A program made the translations under genes and the position numbers. The notes below the pieces were generated by a model that was not told the DNA's origin, did not search any database, and saw nothing but the letters and a program-made list of their open reading frames with translations. Positions 5,783 through 14,717 of a stretch of DNA of 64,000 nt are shown here, in pieces; the first letter of the stretch is position 1, and each line of letters starts with the position of its first letter. The stretch lies in NCBI RefSeq assembly GCF_055900595.2, contig NZ_CM148325.1. One strand, 5' to 3'.

Positions 5783-8272
5783 ATGGAGTTCGTCAGAGAC
5801 TGGCAAAAACCGCGCCCCGCTATCGGGCGCGAAGGCTTACCCGTACCTGAAACCGCACTGGATACCATCCTGAAGTGTTACCGCGCAGACGAAGAGCGCG
5901 CACTGCACGCTGAAGAGCAGGGTCATCCGCTTGCGGGCACAACCATCGGTAACGCGATCGACAAGTGGGAAGGCGCACAGGAGCGCCAGGAAGAGGCCAT
6001 CACGCTCACACAGGAAGCGAGAAGACACCCGCCCACCCTTATTGAGGAAACCCTCAAAGAGCTGGACACCCTGCCCAAGTGGTTGAGGCTGCCGCTGATT
6101 AAGCACCTGAACTTTTTAAGGCGCAAACAGGAGGACGAACAACAGAAAGGCAAGCGCGGCAAGGACACCCGCAAATATGAGCGCTTCCTGAAAAACGGCA
6201 TCCCCGCACGTCTTCGCCGTATTCGTGAGATTAACGCTCGCTTTGCACCGTTAAGTTTTCAGGCCGCTGCCATGCGCGAGAGTCTGGAAGAACTGATCAC
6301 ACTGCCGAACCTGAGCCGTGAACGCATCCAGAAAATAGCCGTACTGCTTGCCAGCGCCGTTAAAATGCATCTTGCCGACGCAATGGACAAGGCCCGCGAA
6401 ATAACAGGGAACGACAAAGACGACAACCTGAACAACTGGCTGATTGCCTACCAGTATATTGGTCGCCGTGTCCTGAAGCTGGGGATCACCCCACCATACT
6501 GGAGCGCCCTTGAACTCCGCCCCGACCGCAGAAGCCCCCCGGACGTGACACTGGTTCCGGGCGCTGTTTTGCGCCTGAACGACGCCGAATGGTGGAATAA
6601 AAAACTTCGCCAGATGCACGACGTCTGGCGTGAGGAACTTTTACGTGCAGCGGGCCTTGTATCCCGCCAGACCTCCGTTTATGTGAGCCGTGAAGCGCTG
6701 GCAGACTTCCGCGAAAAACAGGCCCGTACCCGCGATTTTCTCAAAGCGCACGACGTGGAGAACGAAGACGGCGAACGCATCAGTCTGGAAGATATCTACT
6801 ACGCCAGTACATCCAACCCGCATAACCGCCGCAACGAGATGATGGCGTGCGTTAAGGGAATGGAGCTTATCGCACAGGAACGCGGCGACGTGGCCTTCTT
6901 CGTCACGGTCACAGCCCCGTCTCGTTTTCACAGCGTCACCGACGCAGGCACGCTGAACCCGAAATACAAAGGCGCAACCGTAAAGGACGCCAGCGACTAT
7001 CTGGTTTATAACTTCTTCGCCTCCGCCCGCAAACTCATCAAAAAAGAGAAGCGGGGCTGGTACGGCATTCGCACCGTGGAGCCTCACCACGACGGCACGC
7101 CCCACTGGCACATGCTGGTATTCACAAGCCCTGAGAACGAAGAGCGCATCACGGAAATCATGTGCAATGCCGCCATTCGCGAAGACCGGGCAGAGCTGGG
7201 CGACGACATCACCCCGCGCTTCAAGTGCGAGAAGATAGATCCCGAAAAAGGCACGCCAACCAGCTACATCGCCACCTACATAGGCAAAGGCATTGACGCC
7301 GCTGCATTCGGCGACACGGATCCAAAAACAGGTAAACCGCCCGTTGACCACGAAAGCGGAAAACCTATGGCGGACACCGTGGAAAACGCCGTCGCCTGGG
7401 CGCGCCTGCATCGCATTCGCCAGTTCCAGTTCTTTGGCCTCCCTTCCCGTCAGGTGTGGCGTGAGTTCCGCCGCCTTGCCGGACAAATGGCACGCAACCC
7501 GAAGGGGCCGCAGGCACTGACCAACCCCAAAGCCGACGCCCTCCTTGTTGCAGCCGATACGGGGTGTTTTGCCAGCTACATCATGCATCAGGGCGGTGTG
7601 CTCATTCCCCGTAGTGAATATCTGGCCCGCACAGCCTACGTCACCGCAGAAGAGCCGAACAATTACAGCGAATTCCCCGAGCGCATTTACGGTATCCGCA
7701 TGCCGGAACTGGGGGAGGACTTCACGTTATGCACCCACCCGGAAGAGTGGAAAATCGTCAGAAAGGAACCGGAACCAGACAACCGCACGGGCGAGGGTTT
7801 TGACCTTCAGGGCGGCCCCGCCGCCCCTTGGACTCGTGGCAATAACTGTCACCCTGACGAAAAAACAACCAACAACAGCACACAAACAGAACAGTCAGAG
7901 TGGGCAAAACTGCCCCCCTTACCCCCATCGTCGGACGGTTTTGTGAGCTGGTTTAAGTCGCTTAAGAGGCCGGACAGGAAAAAACTACAAAGATTGCTCA
8001 AAAAACGCACCGAAGAGAGTCGCCAGAACGCCAGCGGCGGCACCGACACACCCACCGACACCATTAACCTGGGCGTTGTGCTGCCGGAACTGCCGGAAAT
8101 CGTGCAAGTCCGCCGCGATCTGGAAGCGCTGGGCGCGGACTTCCCCGAAGCAATGGCCCATTCCGTCTTTATGGGTGCCCGCGTTCGTCTGGGTGACGGT
8201 CGCACCGTTCACCGCGACGAGCAGACCGGGCGCATCACCGTCACCAGTCTGCAACCGGAGGCGAAACCATGA
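5783..8272 (+). CDS. A: Replication initiation endonuclease, P2 gpA family
   Basis: 829-aa ORF at the position of P2 gene A (between the early genes and the portal); large rolling-circle-type replication protein. Confidence 0.75.
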   Translation: MEFVRDWQKPRPAIGREGLPVPETALDTILKCYRADEERALHAEEQGHPLAGTTIGNAIDKWEGAQERQEEAITLTQEARRHPPTLIEETLKELDTLPKWLRLPLIKHLNFLRRKQEDEQQKGKRGKDTRKYERFLKNGIPARLRRIREINARFAPLSFQAAAMRESLEELITLPNLSRERIQKIAVLLASAVKMHLADAMDKAREITGNDKDDNLNNWLIAYQYIGRRVLKLGITPPYWSALELRPDRRSPPDVTLVPGAVLRLNDAEWWNKKLRQMHDVWREELLRAAGLVSRQTSVYVSREALADFREKQARTRDFLKAHDVENEDGERISLEDIYYASTSNPHNRRNEMMACVKGMELIAQERGDVAFFVTVTAPSRFHSVTDAGTLNPKYKGATVKDASDYLVYNFFASARKLIKKEKRGWYGIRTVEPHHDGTPHWHMLVFTSPENEERITEIMCNAAIREDRAELGDDITPRFKCEKIDPEKGTPTSYIATYIGKGIDAAAFGDTDPKTGKPPVDHESGKPMADTVENAVAWARLHRIRQFQFFGLPSRQVWREFRRLAGQMARNPKGPQALTNPKADALLVAADTGCFASYIMHQGGVLIPRSEYLARTAYVTAEEPNNYSEFPERIYGIRMPELGEDFTLCTHPEEWKIVRKEPEPDNRTGEGFDLQGGPAAPWTRGNNCHPDEKTTNNSTQTEQSEWAKLPPLPPSSDGFVSWFKSLKRPDRKKLQRLLKKRTEESRQNASGGTDTPTDTINLGVVLPELPEIVQVRRDLEALGADFPEAMAHSVFMGARVRLGDGRTVHRDEQTGRITVTSLQPEAKP

Positions 8273-8679
8273 ACCGTTATCATTGTGTACTGCCGCGCCA
8301 CTACTTCGGTCAGATTATGCGCTCGCGTATTCCGGCGGTCACGCTGCGAAACCTGAGCACGGTACCGCAGCCGGGCGATGAGCTGGAAATCGCCGTAGCA
8401 GGCCCTGACCGTTCAGCCAGCTGCGTGACCGCCGACGTGCTGAACGCCGTGCCCGTAGGTGGTGACTGGCTGGTTGCCATCCGCTTCCGCCAAGACCCGT
8501 TCGCACCTGAACCGCTCACCCCCGCAGGCCGCATCATGCAGAACTGGCGGGATGAACGCGCGAAGGCGAACTGCGAAAAACTGATTAACAGGATTGCCAC
8601 GACAAACCGACATGCCGCGCTGGCGCGCCGGATATACCCCGCAAAATCAACACAACCAACAGGAGTAAAAGGCCCATGA
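8269..8679 (+). CDS. Hypothetical protein (136 aa), translationally coupled to A
   Basis: ATGA overlap with the A stop; no recognised family. Confidence 0.5.
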   Translation: MNRYHCVLPRHYFGQIMRSRIPAVTLRNLSTVPQPGDELEIAVAGPDRSASCVTADVLNAVPVGGDWLVAIRFRQDPFAPEPLTPAGRIMQNWRDERAKANCEKLINRIATTNRHAALARRIYPAKSTQPTGVKGP

Positions 8680-8804
8680 AAAGAATCGCCGGAACTGACT
8701 ACCAGGAGCTGCTTAAAGCGGTGGAAAACTACCGTTCAGCGCTGGTGTGGTGTGAGATTAAGCCCTGTGACCCGGGAGCAGTTAAGGATTGCAACCGGCG
8801 CGTG
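8676..8804 (+). CDS. Small hypothetical protein (about 42 aa), translationally coupled
   Basis: ATGA overlap with the upstream ORF stop; AGGAG Shine-Dalgarno. Below ORF track cutoff; low confidence. Confidence 0.3.
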
Positions 8805-8937
8805 AGGACATTCAGCGCGTAATTGGCTACCGCTATGTAGCAGCCATTATTGACCTTGTGAATGAACTGGAGGAAGCAAAAGAGCGCATCGCAGAACTGG
8901 AAACCCAGAATAACCCCAACCAGCAGGAGCAGAAGCC

Positions 8938-9519
8938 ATGAAAAAAAGAGACCTTAAAAAACACCTCCGTAGTCAGATTGAATATTTTGAAGATAAGGCT
9001 GCAAAAACAGGGCTTTCCGGTAAAGAGAACATGAACTTCAGGGCACACCTCCTGACGTGGAGAATACTTAATATCACGAGAGATGGACTTGAGCCGCTAG
9101 CCTACCTGATGGAAGATGGCGAGACCCTCATACAGGATCCCAATGTGGAAATGGAGAAGAAAGAGATGGACCTGCCGATAATCGGGCTGTTTGAGATCCC
9201 TGAACTAATAGGACGTTATGAACACGAAAACCGCCAGCTTGCCGCCTTTTTATCCGTGACAATCGAACGACTGGAAACCGTGAAACACGATATTCCGTTC
9301 GGTTTTGATGAGCGCACCGAGGGTGATTTGCTCAGCTTTCAGATTGCCCTGAACGTGCTCACCGCAGAGCCTTCTGCGTGGCTACGCCCGGAACGGCACC
9401 ACAACACGTTCGCATTTACCGTAATTCCCTACGATGCCGCACAGGAAGAGGATAACTTCGAGACCAGGCTTGTTCCCCTGTATCAGATTGCGGATTTCTA
9501 TACGTTGATTCGCTGGTAA
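8938..9519 (+). CDS. Uncharacterised cargo protein (193 aa)
   Basis: ORF track; AGGAG Shine-Dalgarno; acidic, no TM, no motif I can assign; followed by an intrinsic terminator. Confidence 0.55.
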   Translation: MKKRDLKKHLRSQIEYFEDKAAKTGLSGKENMNFRAHLLTWRILNITRDGLEPLAYLMEDGETLIQDPNVEMEKKEMDLPIIGLFEIPELIGRYEHENRQLAAFLSVTIERLETVKHDIPFGFDERTEGDLLSFQIALNVLTAEPSAWLRPERHHNTFAFTVIPYDAAQEEDNFETRLVPLYQIADFYTLIRW

Positions 9520-9532
9520 TCCCCCACAGTAA

Positions 9533-9558
9533 AACAGCCCGACCGGGCTGTTTTTTTA
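9533..9558 (+). terminator. Intrinsic terminator
   Basis: ACAGCCCGACCGGGCTG hairpin followed by T7. Confidence 0.6.
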
Positions 9559-9614
9559 TCTGATATTTTTGATAACGTTGACCGGCTCATTAGCAAAAAA
9601 GCAAAGAGGAAAAC

Positions 9615-10001
9615 ATGAAAGCCCGTATCGGGATCATCCCGGAAAAAGCCCTGCGCCAGCACCTGATTGATATTGCCAGAGGGAAGCGAAAACCACAGCC
9701 CGACGAGCCAAAGGTATGGTTTTCATCCATCAATGCGGCAGGCCAGACGCTGAGCAATGAAAATATCGCCCTTCTGCGTCTTATGAATGAGGAGAAGCCG
9801 CAGACCATGACCGCACTTGCGGAGTTATCCGGCAGAAAACTGAGCAACCTGTCTGTAACCCTGAAAATGCTGAGCAGCTACGGTTTTGTCAGTCTGGAAA
9901 AGAAAGGGAATACTGTACACCCGAAAGCACTTTTTACCGATTTTGAAATCATCGTTGATCCGTCCGTGGGTTCAGTACATCGCGCCACCGCCCGGCCCTG
10001 A
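9615..10001 (+). CDS. Small winged-HTH-like DNA-binding protein (128 aa)
   Basis: ORF track; AAGAGGA Shine-Dalgarno; central segment MTALAELSGRKLSNLSVTLKMLSSYGFVSL resembles a wHTH recognition region. Confidence 0.5.
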   Translation: MKARIGIIPEKALRQHLIDIARGKRKPQPDEPKVWFSSINAAGQTLSNENIALLRLMNEEKPQTMTALAELSGRKLSNLSVTLKMLSSYGFVSLEKKGNTVHPKALFTDFEIIVDPSVGSVHRATARP

Positions 10002-10013
10002 AGTGCGCAATAA

Positions 10014-10040
10014 ACAGCCCCGTTCGGGGCTGTTATTTAT
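10014..10040. terminator. Bidirectional intrinsic terminator
   Basis: CAGCCCCGTTCGGGGCTG hairpin flanked by T-rich sequence on both strands, between convergent genes. Confidence 0.55.
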
Positions 10041-10411
10041 TCCAGAATCAGCTGTTCAGGTGTGCAGCCGTACAGTCTGGCAAGGCGCTCAATATTTGCC
10101 CTGCGCGGGCGTTCTGTTCTTTCGAATTCGGACACGGTAGCCTGCCTGATACCCAGCGCATCCGCCACCTGCTTTTGCGTCATTCCGCGATAGATTCGCC
10201 ACGCCGCCTGCATGGTGCAGCCACGTTCCGAGAGGATGTTGACCACCTCGTTGGGATACAGCGTATCAGGCGATGCACTCGGTTCGTTCTGGACGTCCTC
10301 GTAGAGTTCGTCAAGGTCGCTGTCTCCTGCCAGTTTTTCAAACAACGCCACTGGCAGAATGACGGATACCCTGTTACCCGCACCGTCAGTAATAAACTGA
10401 ATCTGACTCAT
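10037..10411 (-). CDS. HigA-like antitoxin, XRE-family HTH (124 aa)
   Basis: C-terminal HTH (MTQKQVADALGIRQATVSEFERTERPRRANIERLARLYGCTPEQL); immediately downstream of a RelE/ParE-like gene. Confidence 0.65.
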   Translation of the reverse strand: MSQIQFITDGAGNRVSVILPVALFEKLAGDSDLDELYEDVQNEPSASPDTLYPNEVVNILSERGCTMQAAWRIYRGMTQKQVADALGIRQATVSEFERTERPRRANIERLARLYGCTPEQLILE

Positions 10412-10459
10412 TTGCCCCTCCTGCTAAACATCGGTTTATTTTTTAATTTGCTGCCGGTG

Positions 10460-10484
10460 ATAAAAAACGGCGGGTCGCCCCGCC
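10460..10484 (-). terminator. Intrinsic terminator-like hairpin between toxin and antitoxin genes
   Basis: On the minus-strand transcript: GGCGGG-GCGA-CCCGCC followed by GUUUUUUAU, starting directly after the toxin stop codon. Confidence 0.45.
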
Positions 10485-10757
10485 TTAGTATGTTGTCGAG
10501 GTTCTCCGCTGAATACGGAGGATCCTGATAACCACTATCTGCCCTCCCTCAATCGTGAACCTGACACGGTAATGATTTACCCTGAGTCTGTACTCCCCGC
10601 CCGAGTCAGTGAGCTTTTTAATATCCAGATTCTGGAACTTCGGATAGCCATAAAGCGCGTTAACTTTCTCGCGTAAGGATTTCTGATCCCTCGCTGGCAA
10701 AACCCGTAAATCTTTGATTGCCCGAGGGGTCCACATGATTTCAGTCGTCATAAACAC
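10485..10757 (-). CDS. RelE/ParE-superfamily toxin, HigB-like position (90 aa; start uncertain)
   Basis: MWTPRAIKDLRVLPARDQKSLREKVNAL...YRLRVNHYRVRFTIEGGQIVVIRILRIQRR fits the RelE/ParE pattern; toxin-first gene order is HigBA-like. Confidence 0.65.
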   Translation of the reverse strand: MFMTTEIMWTPRAIKDLRVLPARDQKSLREKVNALYGYPKFQNLDIKKLTDSGGEYRLRVNHYRVRFTIEGGQIVVIRILRIQRRTSTTY

Positions 10758-10860
10758 ACCGGAAGCAAATTATTAAAGAGCCGTGCCCGCTGGCACACCT
10801 TAAATATAGGTTTTAACCCCTATATTGTCAAACAAAATCCCTATATCATGAAGTAAAAAA
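10758..10860. promoter_or_regulatory. Putative operator/promoter of the HigBA-like module
   Basis: ATATAGG-N8-CCTATAT palindrome plus a second CCCTATAT direct repeat, directly upstream of the toxin gene. Confidence 0.4.
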
Positions 10861-10879: not shown

Positions 10880-11130
10880 TTTCCGGTGCACGAAAGTGCA
10901 CAAATTTGCACAATTTTTTTGAACGACTTTTTGCCCTTCCGGCCCGTGTGGCGTCTGGATCCGTCGGGGATCCGTGCGTGCACGAAAAAAGGCCTTTTTC
11001 TGCGCGCAGGTGACGGGGGAACAGCCCGCGTTTCAGGGGGTAAATAGCATTCCCTGAACGATGTTGCAGTGACACAACAGAATGGCTGTATTTCTCACGC
11101 TGAGCGTGAAAAAGACGTAAGGGCTTTTGA
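10880..11130. other. Palindrome-dense non-coding stretch (candidate structured RNA or protein-binding array)
   Basis: Consecutive perfect palindromes/hairpins: GTGCAC-GAAA-GTGCAC (10886-10901), GGATCC-GTCGG-GGATCC (10957-10973), CGTGCACG, AAAAAGGCCTTTTT (10986-10999), CTGCGCGCAG (10999-11008), CACGC-TGA-GCGTG (about 11096-11108). Confidence 0.4.
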
Positions 11131-11340
11131 TTTGATGGGGTGAAAGATAAGGCCGTCAAAATCGCACTGAGGCAGCGAGAATATGTCGTCAGAGTTGCGG
11201 GGTTGCGTAAGCATCCGCCCGGCGATGATGGCTACAGGGCTGGAGATGTTGTGAAATTATCTGAAGGAATAACCAGCTTGCAGGAGAACCCGGGCAAAGT
11301 CAGAATAGCGGCAGGCATCAACTCAAAAGAGGATAATGTC

Positions 11341-11844
11341 ATGAGCCACTTTAATGATTTATGCCAGATCAATCGTGAAGCTGAAGAAAAACGCGCTGAG
11401 GCAGCTCAAATTTTGCGGGATGAAGCGGCAAGGCTGATTGATTTCTATGAAGAATGGCTGGGGCTTCCATCCATGTACTGGGAAGACGATGATGGCGACC
11501 TGCACCGCTACGTGGAGACAGGCTTGCCATGTAAGACAGCGGCGGATTTTAGTCCTCTTTCAGTCCACAATATCGCATCTGCACCAGACAATATTTTCCG
11601 CATGGCCGTACGAACCTGGGTTAAGTCATCTGACAGCAGCTACCCGGTAAGCGTGGTTATTGCACTTGAATTATATTCAGTAGATGCGGAACGGGTGTCT
11701 CTGAGAGTCCGGGTGGAAGACGATATTTCTGTTCGCGTATTTATCAATAAACCCAGCGAAGAAGCCTGGGGCGATGTTGTTATGCACATGAAAAAGCACA
11801 TCGCTAATCACCTGAAAAAGCGAGCGCCATCAGCACTTCGTTAA
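11341..11844 (+). CDS. Uncharacterised cargo protein (167 aa from ATG 11341; ORF track gives a 234-aa version from GTG 11140)
   Basis: Strong AAGAGGA Shine-Dalgarno before ATG 11341; sits in the position P2 uses for old, next to the portal gene; followed by the palindrome GGGGCATAAATTTTTTATGCCCC. Confidence 0.5.
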   Translation: MSHFNDLCQINREAEEKRAEAAQILRDEAARLIDFYEEWLGLPSMYWEDDDGDLHRYVETGLPCKTAADFSPLSVHNIASAPDNIFRMAVRTWVKSSDSSYPVSVVIALELYSVDAERVSLRVRVEDDISVRVFINKPSEEAWGDVVMHMKKHIANHLKKRAPSALR

Positions 11845-11910
11845 GCAGAGCTGGAGAGTCGGGGCATAAATTTTTTATGCCCCGGCGAAGCAGCAGACAA
11901 GCGAAGCGCG

Positions 11911-12966
11911 TCAGGATATGGGCCGGGTGTCTAACAGTGCGTAAGGGTTAAAACGGATCACCTCTTCGCCCAGCCAGTCGTTGACGTGTTTCATTGCTTC
12001 CATGACGGGCATCAGTTCGTTAATGGCAAACACACGGGCTGCCTTCTCCACATCCCCGAATGACCCCTTCTCACCCGGCATGGCCCCCATCAGCTGAGGT
12101 GGCACGCGGTGCACAGCCAGCACGTCATCACGCGATGCGGCCTTGACGTTCATGAACTCATCCTTTGCGGTGATTTGCTGAAACGGCAAAATCTGTACGC
12201 CATCCTTACCACCTCCCGCCGCGTGGATGAGCAGATTTTTAAACGCCCCGCCACCACGCGCGCTTTGCAGTGTTTCCCGCAGTTTTTCCATGCTTTCACG
12301 GTCAACCTGCGCCGCACCGATGTAGACAATACAGCCCGCGTGTGAGCCGTTATCGTAGTAGAGCTTGCGGAAGATATCGGCGGAATGTGACAGGCTGGCA
12401 GACAGCAGGCCGCCCAGGTAATCCGGCATCCCGTAAATCTCCTGGTTGATATCAGGATTCATCAGGTGGCATATCGTCCCCTCACGAAAGCGGTACTCTT
12501 CCTGTCCTTCCTGTATATACCACCATGATTTCATATCGCTGCCACGTCGCATGTATTTCGCCAGCGCCCGGCGCAGGGCCAGCGGTTCGCCAAGCATGTT
12601 GCGCCGCAGCTCAAGACAGGCATTACCGAACACAAACCAGTCCATCGCCACCCCGGCGAACTCCTGGCGGGACAGCAGAGGATGTGGAATATAGCAGCCC
12701 AGCAGCACATTACGTTTGAAGCTGAGCGCCGACTGGTGCCAGGACGTCTGGCGGGCAGCCCGTGCCAGTCCGTACCAGTCAACGGGCGTTTCAAACCACC
12801 GCCCGTTGTCGGCGCAGTACATGCTGTCCAGCAGGTCGGCCCCTGACAGCCGGTAAGGTCCTTCAAACGTGAAGGCACTCAGTGTCGGGTCGCTTCGCAG
12901 GGAATCCGCAAGGCTGCCCTGCGCTGCGCGGGCGTTCGTACGTCGTTGTTTATTTTTTCTGCTCAT
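11911..12966 (-). CDS. Q: Portal protein, P2 gpQ family
   Basis: 351-aa ORF divergent from the capsid operon and adjacent to the terminase large subunit, as in P2. Confidence 0.8.
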   Translation of the reverse strand: MSRKNKQRRTNARAAQGSLADSLRSDPTLSAFTFEGPYRLSGADLLDSMYCADNGRWFETPVDWYGLARAARQTSWHQSALSFKRNVLLGCYIPHPLLSRQEFAGVAMDWFVFGNACLELRRNMLGEPLALRRALAKYMRRGSDMKSWWYIQEGQEEYRFREGTICHLMNPDINQEIYGMPDYLGGLLSASLSHSADIFRKLYYDNGSHAGCIVYIGAAQVDRESMEKLRETLQSARGGGAFKNLLIHAAGGGKDGVQILPFQQITAKDEFMNVKAASRDDVLAVHRVPPQLMGAMPGEKGSFGDVEKAARVFAINELMPVMEAMKHVNDWLGEEVIRFNPYALLDTRPIS

Positions 12967-14717
12967 CAGAACTCCGTAACACTGAAGGGGGCGGCATCAT
13001 GTTCACCGCCGACAGGTTCGTTGATAACGGCCAGCATGGTGGCCCATGCAAGATCGCCATGGCTTACGCCTCTTGCGCGATCTGTTTCGTAGGTGATAAA
13101 TCCGGCCTGCGTTTTTGTTTTGCGTACCGCGTTAAAGGCGCTCACCAGTTCGCGCTCGCTGCGGTCGTACTCCCACCGCCCGGCGCGCATGAGCTGCAGC
13201 ATCTTCAGAACCAGCGTGCGCTTTGATGACAGGGTGAAGGTGTAGGGAATGGCTGCCGGAAAAAAGCGCTTCACAATCTGATACACCGCATCCCCGTGAC
13301 CGCCGGTTACGTCAATACCGATATGCTCAACGTTATAGCGAAAGGTGAACTCTTCAATCACCTTCGCCTGCGCCTCAAACTCCAGCCCCTGCACCCGCCG
13401 CGTCTCCACGGTGCGAAAACGCCCGCCCGGTACGGCTGGCGGCACCACCACGACAACCGCCCCGCTGTCACCGTTCCCGCTACTGCCGTTGGCGTCGTAC
13501 CCAATCCACACAGGGCGGTTCCCCATCGGACGCGGTGCAAACGGCTTCCAGTCCGGCCACTCGTCGTATCCGTCAACACCGCAGCCAATCAGGATATTCA
13601 GGTTAAATGCCGATTCCCCTTCGCGAGCAAATTCACACATGTAGAGATTGCGGAACTCGTCTTCAGTGTTATTGCGCCGGATTTTGTCAATGTTGGTTAA
13701 CGTCCATCCCTGACTGACCACATCTTCCAGCGTCACAATTTGCCGCCAGATATAGTCAGGACAGATAAGGCCGTTATGAAGCGCATTCCAGCTCACATCA
13801 AAATGCTGACGTTTATGAGTACGAAGCCCTTCATTCCAGTGATCGCCGTTCCAGTATGCATACGCCTCATGTGTTTCACTTGATGGCGTGGAAAAATAGG
13901 TACACCGCAAACCATCCAGCGTTGCCATAGCAGCAGCCACCTTGCGCAGCTCTGCGAAACGCCCCGTCCAGAAAAACTCATCAAAATACAGATTCCCTGT
14001 GTACGCTTGCGCGGTGGCCGCAGAAGTGCCGAGAAAATGCAGCTCTGCACCGTTGGAGAGGATGACTTTATCGCCCCCTTTCAGTTCCACATCAACTTCA
14101 GATGCAGCCTTCTGAATAATGCTTTTAAACTGGAGCGCCTGACGACGAGACGCAGACAAAAAAATCTGGTTACGCTGGTAAGGTTGTGCCACATCGTCAC
14201 GCAGCGCCATCAGCAGCGCTTCCTGCGCAAAATACCAGGTCGCCCCAATCTGGCGGGATTTCAGGATCATCCTGTCAGTAATTCCGGCACGCTCACAGGC
14301 ACCGATAGCATCAAGCCATTTGCGCTGGTGTCCGGCCAGCCTGTCGGTAATTTTTTCCCGCAGCGCCGCGATCTGTTCCGGCGTGAAATGATTTTTGTGT
14401 TTTTTCGCCCGGCCTTTCTTTCCTGTTGCCGTCTCATCCGGCAGACCGTCATGCAGCTTTTTAAGCTGACGGGTCAGCAAATCAATTTCCTTAAAGTCCC
14501 CGCCTGTTTTATTCTGTTTTTCCGTGAGCTGAATGAGTCGCGCATCCATGGACTGCGTGACACGCTGAACCGGGGGCGTCTCATCCCACTGGTCGCGTTT
14601 TTTCCACGAATGGATCGTGTTCTGGTTGATACCCATAAGGCGGGAAATTTCCGCAACAGGGTAACCCTGCCAGTACAGCTGGCGTGCCCGCTGGCGAACA
14701 AATGTATCCTGAATCAT
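12966..14717 (-). CDS. P: Terminase large (ATPase) subunit, P2 gpP family
   Basis: 583 aa with an N-terminal HTH (YWQGYPVAEISRLMGINQNTIHSW); position matches P2 P. Confidence 0.85.
   Translation of the reverse strand: MIQDTFVRQRARQLYWQGYPVAEISRLMGINQNTIHSWKKRDQWDETPPVQRVTQSMDARLIQLTEKQNKTGGDFKEIDLLTRQLKKLHDGLPDETATGKKGRAKKHKNHFTPEQIAALREKITDRLAGHQRKWLDAIGACERAGITDRMILKSRQIGATWYFAQEALLMALRDDVAQPYQRNQIFLSASRRQALQFKSIIQKAASEVDVELKGGDKVILSNGAELHFLGTSAATAQAYTGNLYFDEFFWTGRFAELRKVAAAMATLDGLRCTYFSTPSSETHEAYAYWNGDHWNEGLRTHKRQHFDVSWNALHNGLICPDYIWRQIVTLEDVVSQGWTLTNIDKIRRNNTEDEFRNLYMCEFAREGESAFNLNILIGCGVDGYDEWPDWKPFAPRPMGNRPVWIGYDANGSSGNGDSGAVVVVVPPAVPGGRFRTVETRRVQGLEFEAQAKVIEEFTFRYNVEHIGIDVTGGHGDAVYQIVKRFFPAAIPYTFTLSSKRTLVLKMLQLMRAGRWEYDRSERELVSAFNAVRKTKTQAGFITYETDRARGVSHGDLAWATMLAVINEPVGGEHDAAPFSVTEF

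Follow-up and report, generated by a model that had tools for sequence, protein, structure and literature searches.

A small phrog_5091 gene on the portal side of the probable cos region in a P88-type Escherichia coli prophage: optional moron cargo with a possible role in phage exclusion

Between the replication gene and the portal gene of a P2-family prophage lies an open reading frame that an earlier note on this DNA described as an orphan, placed where phage P2 carries old, and proposed as a candidate for a replaced defence gene. The locus raises the question of what this gene encodes, where it starts, whether it is a fixed part of the prophage or optional cargo, and whether it might act against other phages. 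The window analysed here, 64,000 nucleotides in full, is a piece of E. coli chromosome in which a P88-type prophage of the P2 family (Xuanwuvirus, Peduoviridae) resides. The 1.3 kb around the gene recurs at 100% identity in several E. coli chromosomes from poultry and humans, and the flanks of that 1.3 kb are 88-90% identical to phage P88 and its relatives. The local gene order was built from the list of open reading frames, the RefSeq annotation of the identical stretch and family scans:

5783-8272, plus strand: replication gene gpA
8269-10001, plus strand: small cargo genes
10037-10411, minus strand: HTH gene
10485-10757, minus strand: RelE-family toxin gene, then a 580-bp gap
11140-11844, plus strand: the open reading frame under study, in its long form
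11911-12966, minus strand: portal gene (gpQ homologue), TIGR01540 portal_PBSX with E 3.3e-62, annotated in RefSeq as phage portal protein
12966-14717, minus strand: large terminase gene

The portal gene is convergent with the gene under study. As the list of open reading frames bears out, the frame is open for 234 aa, from GTG 11140 to the TAA stop at 11842-11844. The earlier note had preferred a start at ATG 11341 on account of the Shine-Dalgarno sequence ahead of it. That sequence is present, and the following features describe the region:

11341-11844, plus strand: cassette protein gene, 167 aa plus stop, a member of phrog_5091
11327-11333, plus strand: Shine-Dalgarno sequence AAGAGGA, 8 nt before ATG 11341, read from the sequence
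11140-11340, plus strand: upstream extension, non-coding, with no codon-position bias, with a stop in the relative L022, common to P88

The preference for ATG 11341 was right, and four kinds of data (the family profile, homologue starts, upstream stops and codon-position data) agree on it. Positions 1-163 of the phrog_5091 profile (164 positions in all) align to residues 67-233 of the 234-aa ORF, and six of seven close homologues are 167-169 aa long with the N-terminus MSHF. AAGAGGA is kept in E. coli and Salmonella relatives, and more distant ones show GGAGG or GAGGTGA in the corresponding position. The frame is closed by stops one to three codons ahead of the ATG in Edwardsiella and in relatives of 31-38% identity, and in L022, an E. 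coli relative of 98% identity, a stop interrupts the frame within the upstream extension. When this relative is compared with the window, the coding part shows 16 synonymous and 4 non-synonymous changes (dN/dS 0.065), and the 27 differences in 11140-11340 are spread 9/9/9 over the codon positions; against Salmonella, dN/dS in the coding part is 0.14. The ratio of 0.065 points to purifying selection and therefore to more than a chance ORF. Judged from these comparisons, the true start is ATG 11341, giving 167 aa, and the cassette gene is real and under constraint.

A longer product, whether the 234 aa from GTG 11140 or the 197 aa from PGAP's GTG 11251, is very improbable: the frame is open from 11140 in the present strain, GTG 11251 has GGAG 5 nt ahead of it and the RefSeq models measure 197 or 236 aa, but both GTG codons lie within backbone DNA, shared with P88, where the frame of the upstream stretch closes after 42 codons, and the stop in L022, the unbiased upstream differences and the start of family profiles and homologues at the ATG all count against it. 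Because the upstream part is P88-shared DNA in which the frame closes, the RefSeq models of 197 and 236 aa are too long. PGAP starts for the gene are inconsistent: of the records L001, L022 and L023, two give 197 aa and the third 236 aa, and the AFDB also holds both of these versions of the protein.

We then asked how the gene is set into the prophage. In the alignment with P88, homology runs from 10887 to about 11264, is lost after ...ATTATCTGA (11264), and comes back at GAGCTGGAGAGTC (11848), just before a hairpin and the end of the portal gene. From this break and return it follows that the gene is an insertion of about 580 bp and that the hairpin belongs to the backbone. The elements of the insertion and its borders are as follows:

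11265-11847, no strand: cassette of about 580 bp, inserted relative to P88 and most related E. coli prophages
11278-11306, plus strand: sigma-70-like promoter candidate, TTGCAG-17 nt-CAGAAT, weak with 7/12 matches, its -10 element ending 34 nt before the start
11270-11296 (left copy) and 11842-11866 (right copy), no strand: imperfect direct repeat of about 25 bp flanking the cassette, from local alignment
11858-11886, no strand: hairpin, full stem, a backbone element between the convergent cassette and portal genes

The Salmonella homologue shares the cassette from about 11275 on, including the TTGCAG-17-CAGAAT element. With a GC content of 48.5%, the cassette stands apart from the portal gene (57.8%) and from the flanking late genes in general (54.5-57.8%). 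Two marks of a moron, patchy presence in close relatives and deviating base composition, are thus found here.

A strict promoter scan upstream of the gene returned no plus-strand promoter and missed TTGCAG-17-CAGAAT. Elements of the form TTGCnn-17-CAnAAT, ending 30-37 nt before the start, are found in Salmonella, in Edwardsiella, in the Klebsiella-type loci L017 and L019 and in the ST131 allele at locus L028. The DNA of the ST131 allele is otherwise unalignable with the cassette, yet its promoter-like element shares both form and spacing. Since this form and spacing recur in such divergent alleles, we take TTGCAG-17-CAGAAT as the probable promoter of the cassette.

The flanking repeat has a local alignment score of 10, compared with a shuffle mean of 5.7 (sd 1.15), and 10 of 2,000 shuffles scored as high; it may be the scar of a cassette exchange at the junction. 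Both copies begin with TAA and lead into GGGCA, a motif that resembles the hairpin's left arm.

The palindrome reported after the gene is present as GGGGCATAAATTTTTTATGCCCC at 11861-11883, within the longer stem. Its folding energy is -28.9 kcal/mol on the plus strand and -22.2 on the minus strand, with z scores of -6.2 and -5.1 against shuffles. The same hairpin occurs in P88, where the gene is absent, and upstream of the second allele described below (allele B) in the ST131-type locus. A U-tract is absent on both strands, and the hairpin is therefore not a canonical intrinsic terminator; canonical terminators are carried by the relatives at L017, L006 and L028. As a backbone feature that P88 has too and that lacks a U-tract, the hairpin was rejected as the cassette gene's own terminator. 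An Rfam search gave just a sub-threshold match to 'gyrA RNA' (RF01740), which falls on the hairpin at 11852-11905 and scores 22 bits where the gathering score is 45; the GC-rich stem almost certainly matches by chance.

The position of the cassette relative to cos bears on the proposed relation to old. In P2, old is on the right arm, about 195 bp before cosR, and the distance from cosL to Q is only 168 bp, with the terminator tQ inside. The corresponding landmark in the window is this block:

10887-11264, no strand: conserved backbone block, probably cos-bearing, shared at 88-90% identity by about 1,150 E. coli genomes and by P88-like phages

The block separates the variable cargo, which ends at a boundary at 10887, from the cassette. 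The linear phage record P88_4B11 is cut exactly between the equivalents of 10931 and 10932. BLAST of the P2 cos region against the backbone block found no significant similarity, and the position of cos is therefore read from the end of this one linear record, which would probably place it near 10931/10932. An inverted repeat, GTGCACAAATTTGCAC (10896-10932), followed by seven T, adjoins the record end. The block also contains a TGT-N12-ACA dyad at 11062-11079 that is conserved in P88; sites for the Ogr/Delta activator at P2 late promoters have this consensus, although by a rough estimate such a dyad is expected by chance in about 15% of stretches of some 600 bp.

If this placement of cos is right, the RelE and HTH genes and their neighbours lie on the old-equivalent side, and the cassette in the cosL-Q interval. 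P2-like phages pick up foreign genes in that interval (PMC5694545, citing Dodd and Egan 1996 and Nakayama et al. 1999). The gene thus shares the gpA-gpQ interval with old, as had been proposed, but probably lies on the opposite side of cos, and the further idea that it replaced old is not borne out. Comparison with P2 puts old before cosR and the cassette on the portal side of the probable cos block, where it is an insertion into a junction that is usually empty.

The cargo on the other side of the block is variable. At 8938-10001 on the plus strand it consists of a 193-aa ORF, for which Pfam and NCBIfam gave no match, and then a 128-aa winged-helix protein. Strain LH50-c, identical in its right flank, has a 124-aa DUF6516 protein in place of the 193-aa ORF, and cargo left of cos therefore varies even among carriers of an identical cassette. 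The RelE-family gene lies upstream of the HTH gene, and both stand behind a near-consensus promoter, TTGACA-17-TATATT (10831-10803, minus strand), which sits within a short repeat-rich stretch. This pair (10037-10831, minus strand) is a HigBA-like toxin-antitoxin module on the old-equivalent side of cos. Other carriers of the same allele have three unrelated hypothetical genes (L022) or small ORFs (L023) where the window has the RelE/HTH pair, and a carrier in the locus table of Rousset et al. has AAA_15 and methyltransferase genes. The cassette gene is therefore without a fixed partner. A role as type II toxin-antitoxin partner of the RelE/HTH pair was rejected because the neighbours vary among carriers.

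Contrary to the earlier description, the protein is no orphan. It matches phrog_5091 over its full length (E 3.5e-52, 177 bits), the family has 31 representatives at 50% identity when its profile is run against 1.8 billion proteins, and a divergent allele is common in E. coli. This is an uncharacterised family, seen in the present data almost only in prophages. The backbone is found in 1,150 of 5,426 complete E. coli genomes, 28 of which (2.4%) have the window's allele; the empty, P88-like junction is found in about 62% of the backbone-bearing genomes and in P88 itself. The divergent allele, which we call allele B (WP_000236495, 174 aa), belongs to ST131-type P88-like prophages and lies 60 bp from the cassette site:

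6527-7051 of locus L028, in E. coli JJ2434 (NZ_CP013835): allele B, equivalent to the window between 11913 and the portal stop

Allele B is present in 397 of the 5,426 genomes, or about 35% of those with the backbone, and is 14 times commoner than the window's allele; the two together account for about 425 genomes. It is inserted between the backbone hairpin and the portal gene, beyond the hairpin as seen from the cassette site, and brings along a canonical bidirectional terminator of its own. The protein is 22% identical to that of the window, with an hhalign probability of 99.6% (E 6.5e-24), and matches phrog_5091 with E 1.4e-67. The genomes with the exact allele of the window are mostly from chicken or poultry products and those with allele B mostly human isolates, including ST131, a split that may simply reflect clonal sampling.

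A tblastn search of 50,697 phage records found allele B in four sequenced P2-like phages; phage vB_EcoM-705R2 carries it. The window's allele had no match in these records or in 72,556 plasmids, and with both alleles as queries the family is essentially missing from plasmids. The portal-adjacent slot also holds relatives in Salmonella, Edwardsiella, Klebsiella-type loci and one further assembly. Distant members, picked up with the family profile, are found at other sites typical of morons: in a lambdoid Klebsiella prophage between the genes for antiterminator Q and holin, in a P2-like prophage of Pectobacterium 12 bp past ogr, inside the tail module and overlapping a tail gene in Chromobacterium, and at the prophage edge in Yokenella.

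The protein itself is soluble, mildly acidic and of 19 kDa, with a pI of 5.4 that equals the family median (5.4). Two statements of the earlier note, that it has no transmembrane segment and no assignable motif, were confirmed. There is no hydrophobic segment, the maximum Kyte-Doolittle value over 19 residues being 1.15, and searches of Pfam, NCBIfam, PADLOC and PDB sequences were empty. For the protein and 33 aligned family members, Pfam gave nothing below E 0.03, and no domain was found in the protein at E up to 10; NCBIfam had no match for the protein; the best PDB sequence match, with the single protein or the family profile, was at the level of noise (E 0.24). The 5,027 defence-protein models of PADLOC-DB 2.0.0 gave no match at E up to 1 for the protein and seven family members.

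The structure prediction that had been recommended gave a helix-sheet-helix model but no informative structural relative. In the AlphaFold2 model, made from an eight-sequence alignment (pLDDT 83.5, pTM 0.78), a helix at residues 2-39 is followed by an antiparallel sheet and a second helix at 139-161. Foldseek against AFDB50 returned no characterised protein: the matches were all of about 160 aa, came from Enterobacterales and pseudomonads, and gave no functional clue. Across the 33 members, L40, W47, Y57 and G61 are invariant, and the near-invariant positions are mostly hydrophobic, together with T92 and K151; the same alignment contains no conserved polar catalytic residues or catalytic constellation, and no toxic or effector domain is visible in the protein. 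Several known proteins were considered as relatives. With hhalign, the family profile reached a probability of 0.1% against P2 Tin and likewise 0.1% against P2 Old, and 0.2-0.3% against E. coli Syd (SUKH) and E. coli YbjN. A relative of Tin was rejected on this value, and an OLD-family nuclease on this value together with the absence of a Pfam domain and the difference in length (167 aa vs 586 aa). A SUKH/Syd-like immunity protein and a type III chaperone or YbjN-like protein were rejected for want of sequence-profile or strong fold similarity.

The interval in which the gene lies has a published history. The gpA-gpQ interval is a P2 defence hotspot (Rousset et al. 2022, PMC9122126), over a third of the systems cloned from it were protective (PMC9122126), and 15-32% of the unknown proteins of P2 hotspots are predicted to be antiviral (bioRxiv 10.64898/2026.02.27.708500). 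The present locus has the location by which Rousset et al. define the hotspot, between gpA (5783-8272) and the portal gene (11911-12966), and is variable over the 1,150 genomes. Both alleles are given as 'hypothetical' in the raw locus table of that study (file 6, PMC9122126). WP_024211219 appears there in the arrangement described here, with the same neighbours as in other carriers (PMC9122126), and we infer that it is the window's protein. The allele-B arrangement is absent from the main text of PMC9122126, searches of the supplement found neither allele beyond the raw locus table, and a literature search on the protein accessions found no paper citing them.

Taken from sequence and distribution, the cassette is optional moron cargo at a recognised P2-family hotspot and not a conserved structural or packaging gene. 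We envisage it as a self-contained moron of about 580 bp, set between the probable cos block and the hairpin behind the portal gene, which would supply a weak promoter candidate, a good Shine-Dalgarno sequence and one gene read from ATG 11341. The gene would be expressed in the lysogen from the cassette's own promoter-like element. The lack of catalytic residues, of a membrane segment and of a partner gene suggests that the protein may act by stoichiometric binding to another protein, and its target could be a component of a rival phage, bound and disabled on the model of P2 Tin. The promoter-like element, the orientation relative to the late operon, the pattern of presence and absence and the allelic divergence resemble the lysogenic-conversion layout of tin and old.

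Published priors for such loci are about one third, and we therefore hold exclusion of other phages by a lysogen-expressed, non-enzymatic binding protein to be the likeliest reading, but a tentative one, somewhat short of an even chance. A role in defence is a reasonable hypothesis from context, without homology to known defence proteins (PADLOC negative). Against exclusion are the negative PADLOC, Tin and Old comparisons, the lack of an effector domain and the match of the promoter candidate at only 7/12 positions. Some distant members are also seemingly co-transcribed with lytic genes (after ogr, and overlapping the Chromobacterium tail gene), which would fit a function in the lytic cycle better. 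Extended to the family as a whole, the proposal would be that phrog_5091 is a new family of single-protein anti-phage (or anti-defence) factors that act by binding only and whose alleles, at 22-31% identity, recognise different targets; we think this rather unlikely.

The main rival to phage exclusion is counter-defence or host takeover, in which a small acidic protein, during infection or after induction, would bind and inhibit a bacterial immune or housekeeping protein and so help the phage over the lysogen. Many anti-defence proteins are likewise small and acidic, lack enzymatic features and come from a single gene, and the distant members placed where lytic transcription would reach them (12 bp past ogr, in the tail-gene overlap and between antiterminator Q and holin) suit this reading. 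Alleles of 22% identity at one locus fit an arms race in either direction. However, in P88-like prophages the gene and the late operon converge, and the gene has its own promoter-like element and a hairpin or terminator, the usual lysogenic-conversion layout. The tblastn matches to both alleles among the 50,697 phage records are confined to four temperate P2-like records, with essentially none in plasmids, and, if cos is at about 10932, some 410 bp would separate the gene from the left end of the virion DNA. On balance we consider this rival unlikely.

The protein might instead be another kind of lysogenic-conversion factor with no direct link to phages, either an immunity protein against a toxin of rival bacteria or a modulator of host physiology. 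The moron architecture and the restriction to prophages suit this explanation as well, but the profile link to Syd (SUKH) or YbjN is absent, no co-varying toxin gene lies nearby, and loci of this class are known mainly for anti-phage cargo (PMC9122126), so that it too appears improbable. Very improbable is a conserved packaging or head-assembly accessory of the P2 family, kept for that reason beside cos, the portal gene and the terminase gene: members of 31-100% identity do always adjoin the portal gene in several P2-like lineages, but the gene is missing from viable P88 and most prophages of the same backbone, its direction is opposite to that of the late operon, its GC content is below that of the late genes, and further family members are found in lambdoid and other prophages well away from packaging genes. 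Homology to a conserved structural or packaging factor, which would have spoken for such a role, was not found; the match is to an uncharacterised family, and the junction is empty in P88 and in about 62% of the backbone-bearing genomes.

Were phrog_5091 indeed a binding-only anti-phage (or anti-defence) family, an unrecognised immunity determinant would be present in about 8% of complete E. coli genomes, those of the pandemic ST131 lineage among them, and also in prophages of Klebsiella, Salmonella and Edwardsiella. It is established that hotspots near cos in P2-like prophages yield new antiviral genes, and the family offers a compact, single-gene, domain-free candidate. If active, this small non-enzymatic protein would join the repertoire of defence or counter-defence, and its allelic series would be a tractable system for target specificity. 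We regard the gene as a candidate of moderate interest because the family is compact and common in E. coli. The present yield is a corrected start codon, an 'orphan' shown to be a family, and a clearer view of the side of cos on which the cassette lies.

Among known systems, P2 Tin is the model for the proposed mode of action. Tin blocks T-even phages, probably by binding one of the invader's proteins. Like the cassette protein, it is encoded in the gpA-gpQ interval of a P2-family prophage and is a non-essential, single soluble protein without a recognisable enzymatic domain. However, Tin has 252 aa and its gene lies on the right arm beside old, with which it is co-transcribed, whereas the cassette gene encodes 167 aa, stands alone on the portal side of the probable cos and is unrelated in sequence (hhalign 0.1%). 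P2 Old likewise is optional prophage cargo of the gpA-to-gpQ interval, but it is a protein of 586 aa with ATPase and nuclease domains, encoded before cosR and transcribed leftwards; it has no similarity to the cassette protein, and size, strand and side of cos are all different.

Closer in position are the morons found between cosL and the portal gene in other P2-like phages. The ctx toxin gene of phiCTX lies between cosL and the portal gene. ORF1-4 of phiRSY1 occupy the same site, between the left cohesive end and the gpQ homologue (PMC5694545). The proteins encoded by these phiRSY1 and phiCTX morons are, in contrast, unrelated to the cassette protein. The nearest counterpart is allele B (WP_000236495), which is like the window's gene in family, locus, orientation, size and promoter-like element, and unlike it in its sequence (22% identity), its place on the other side of the hairpin, its own bidirectional terminator and its frequency, with 397 genomes against 28.
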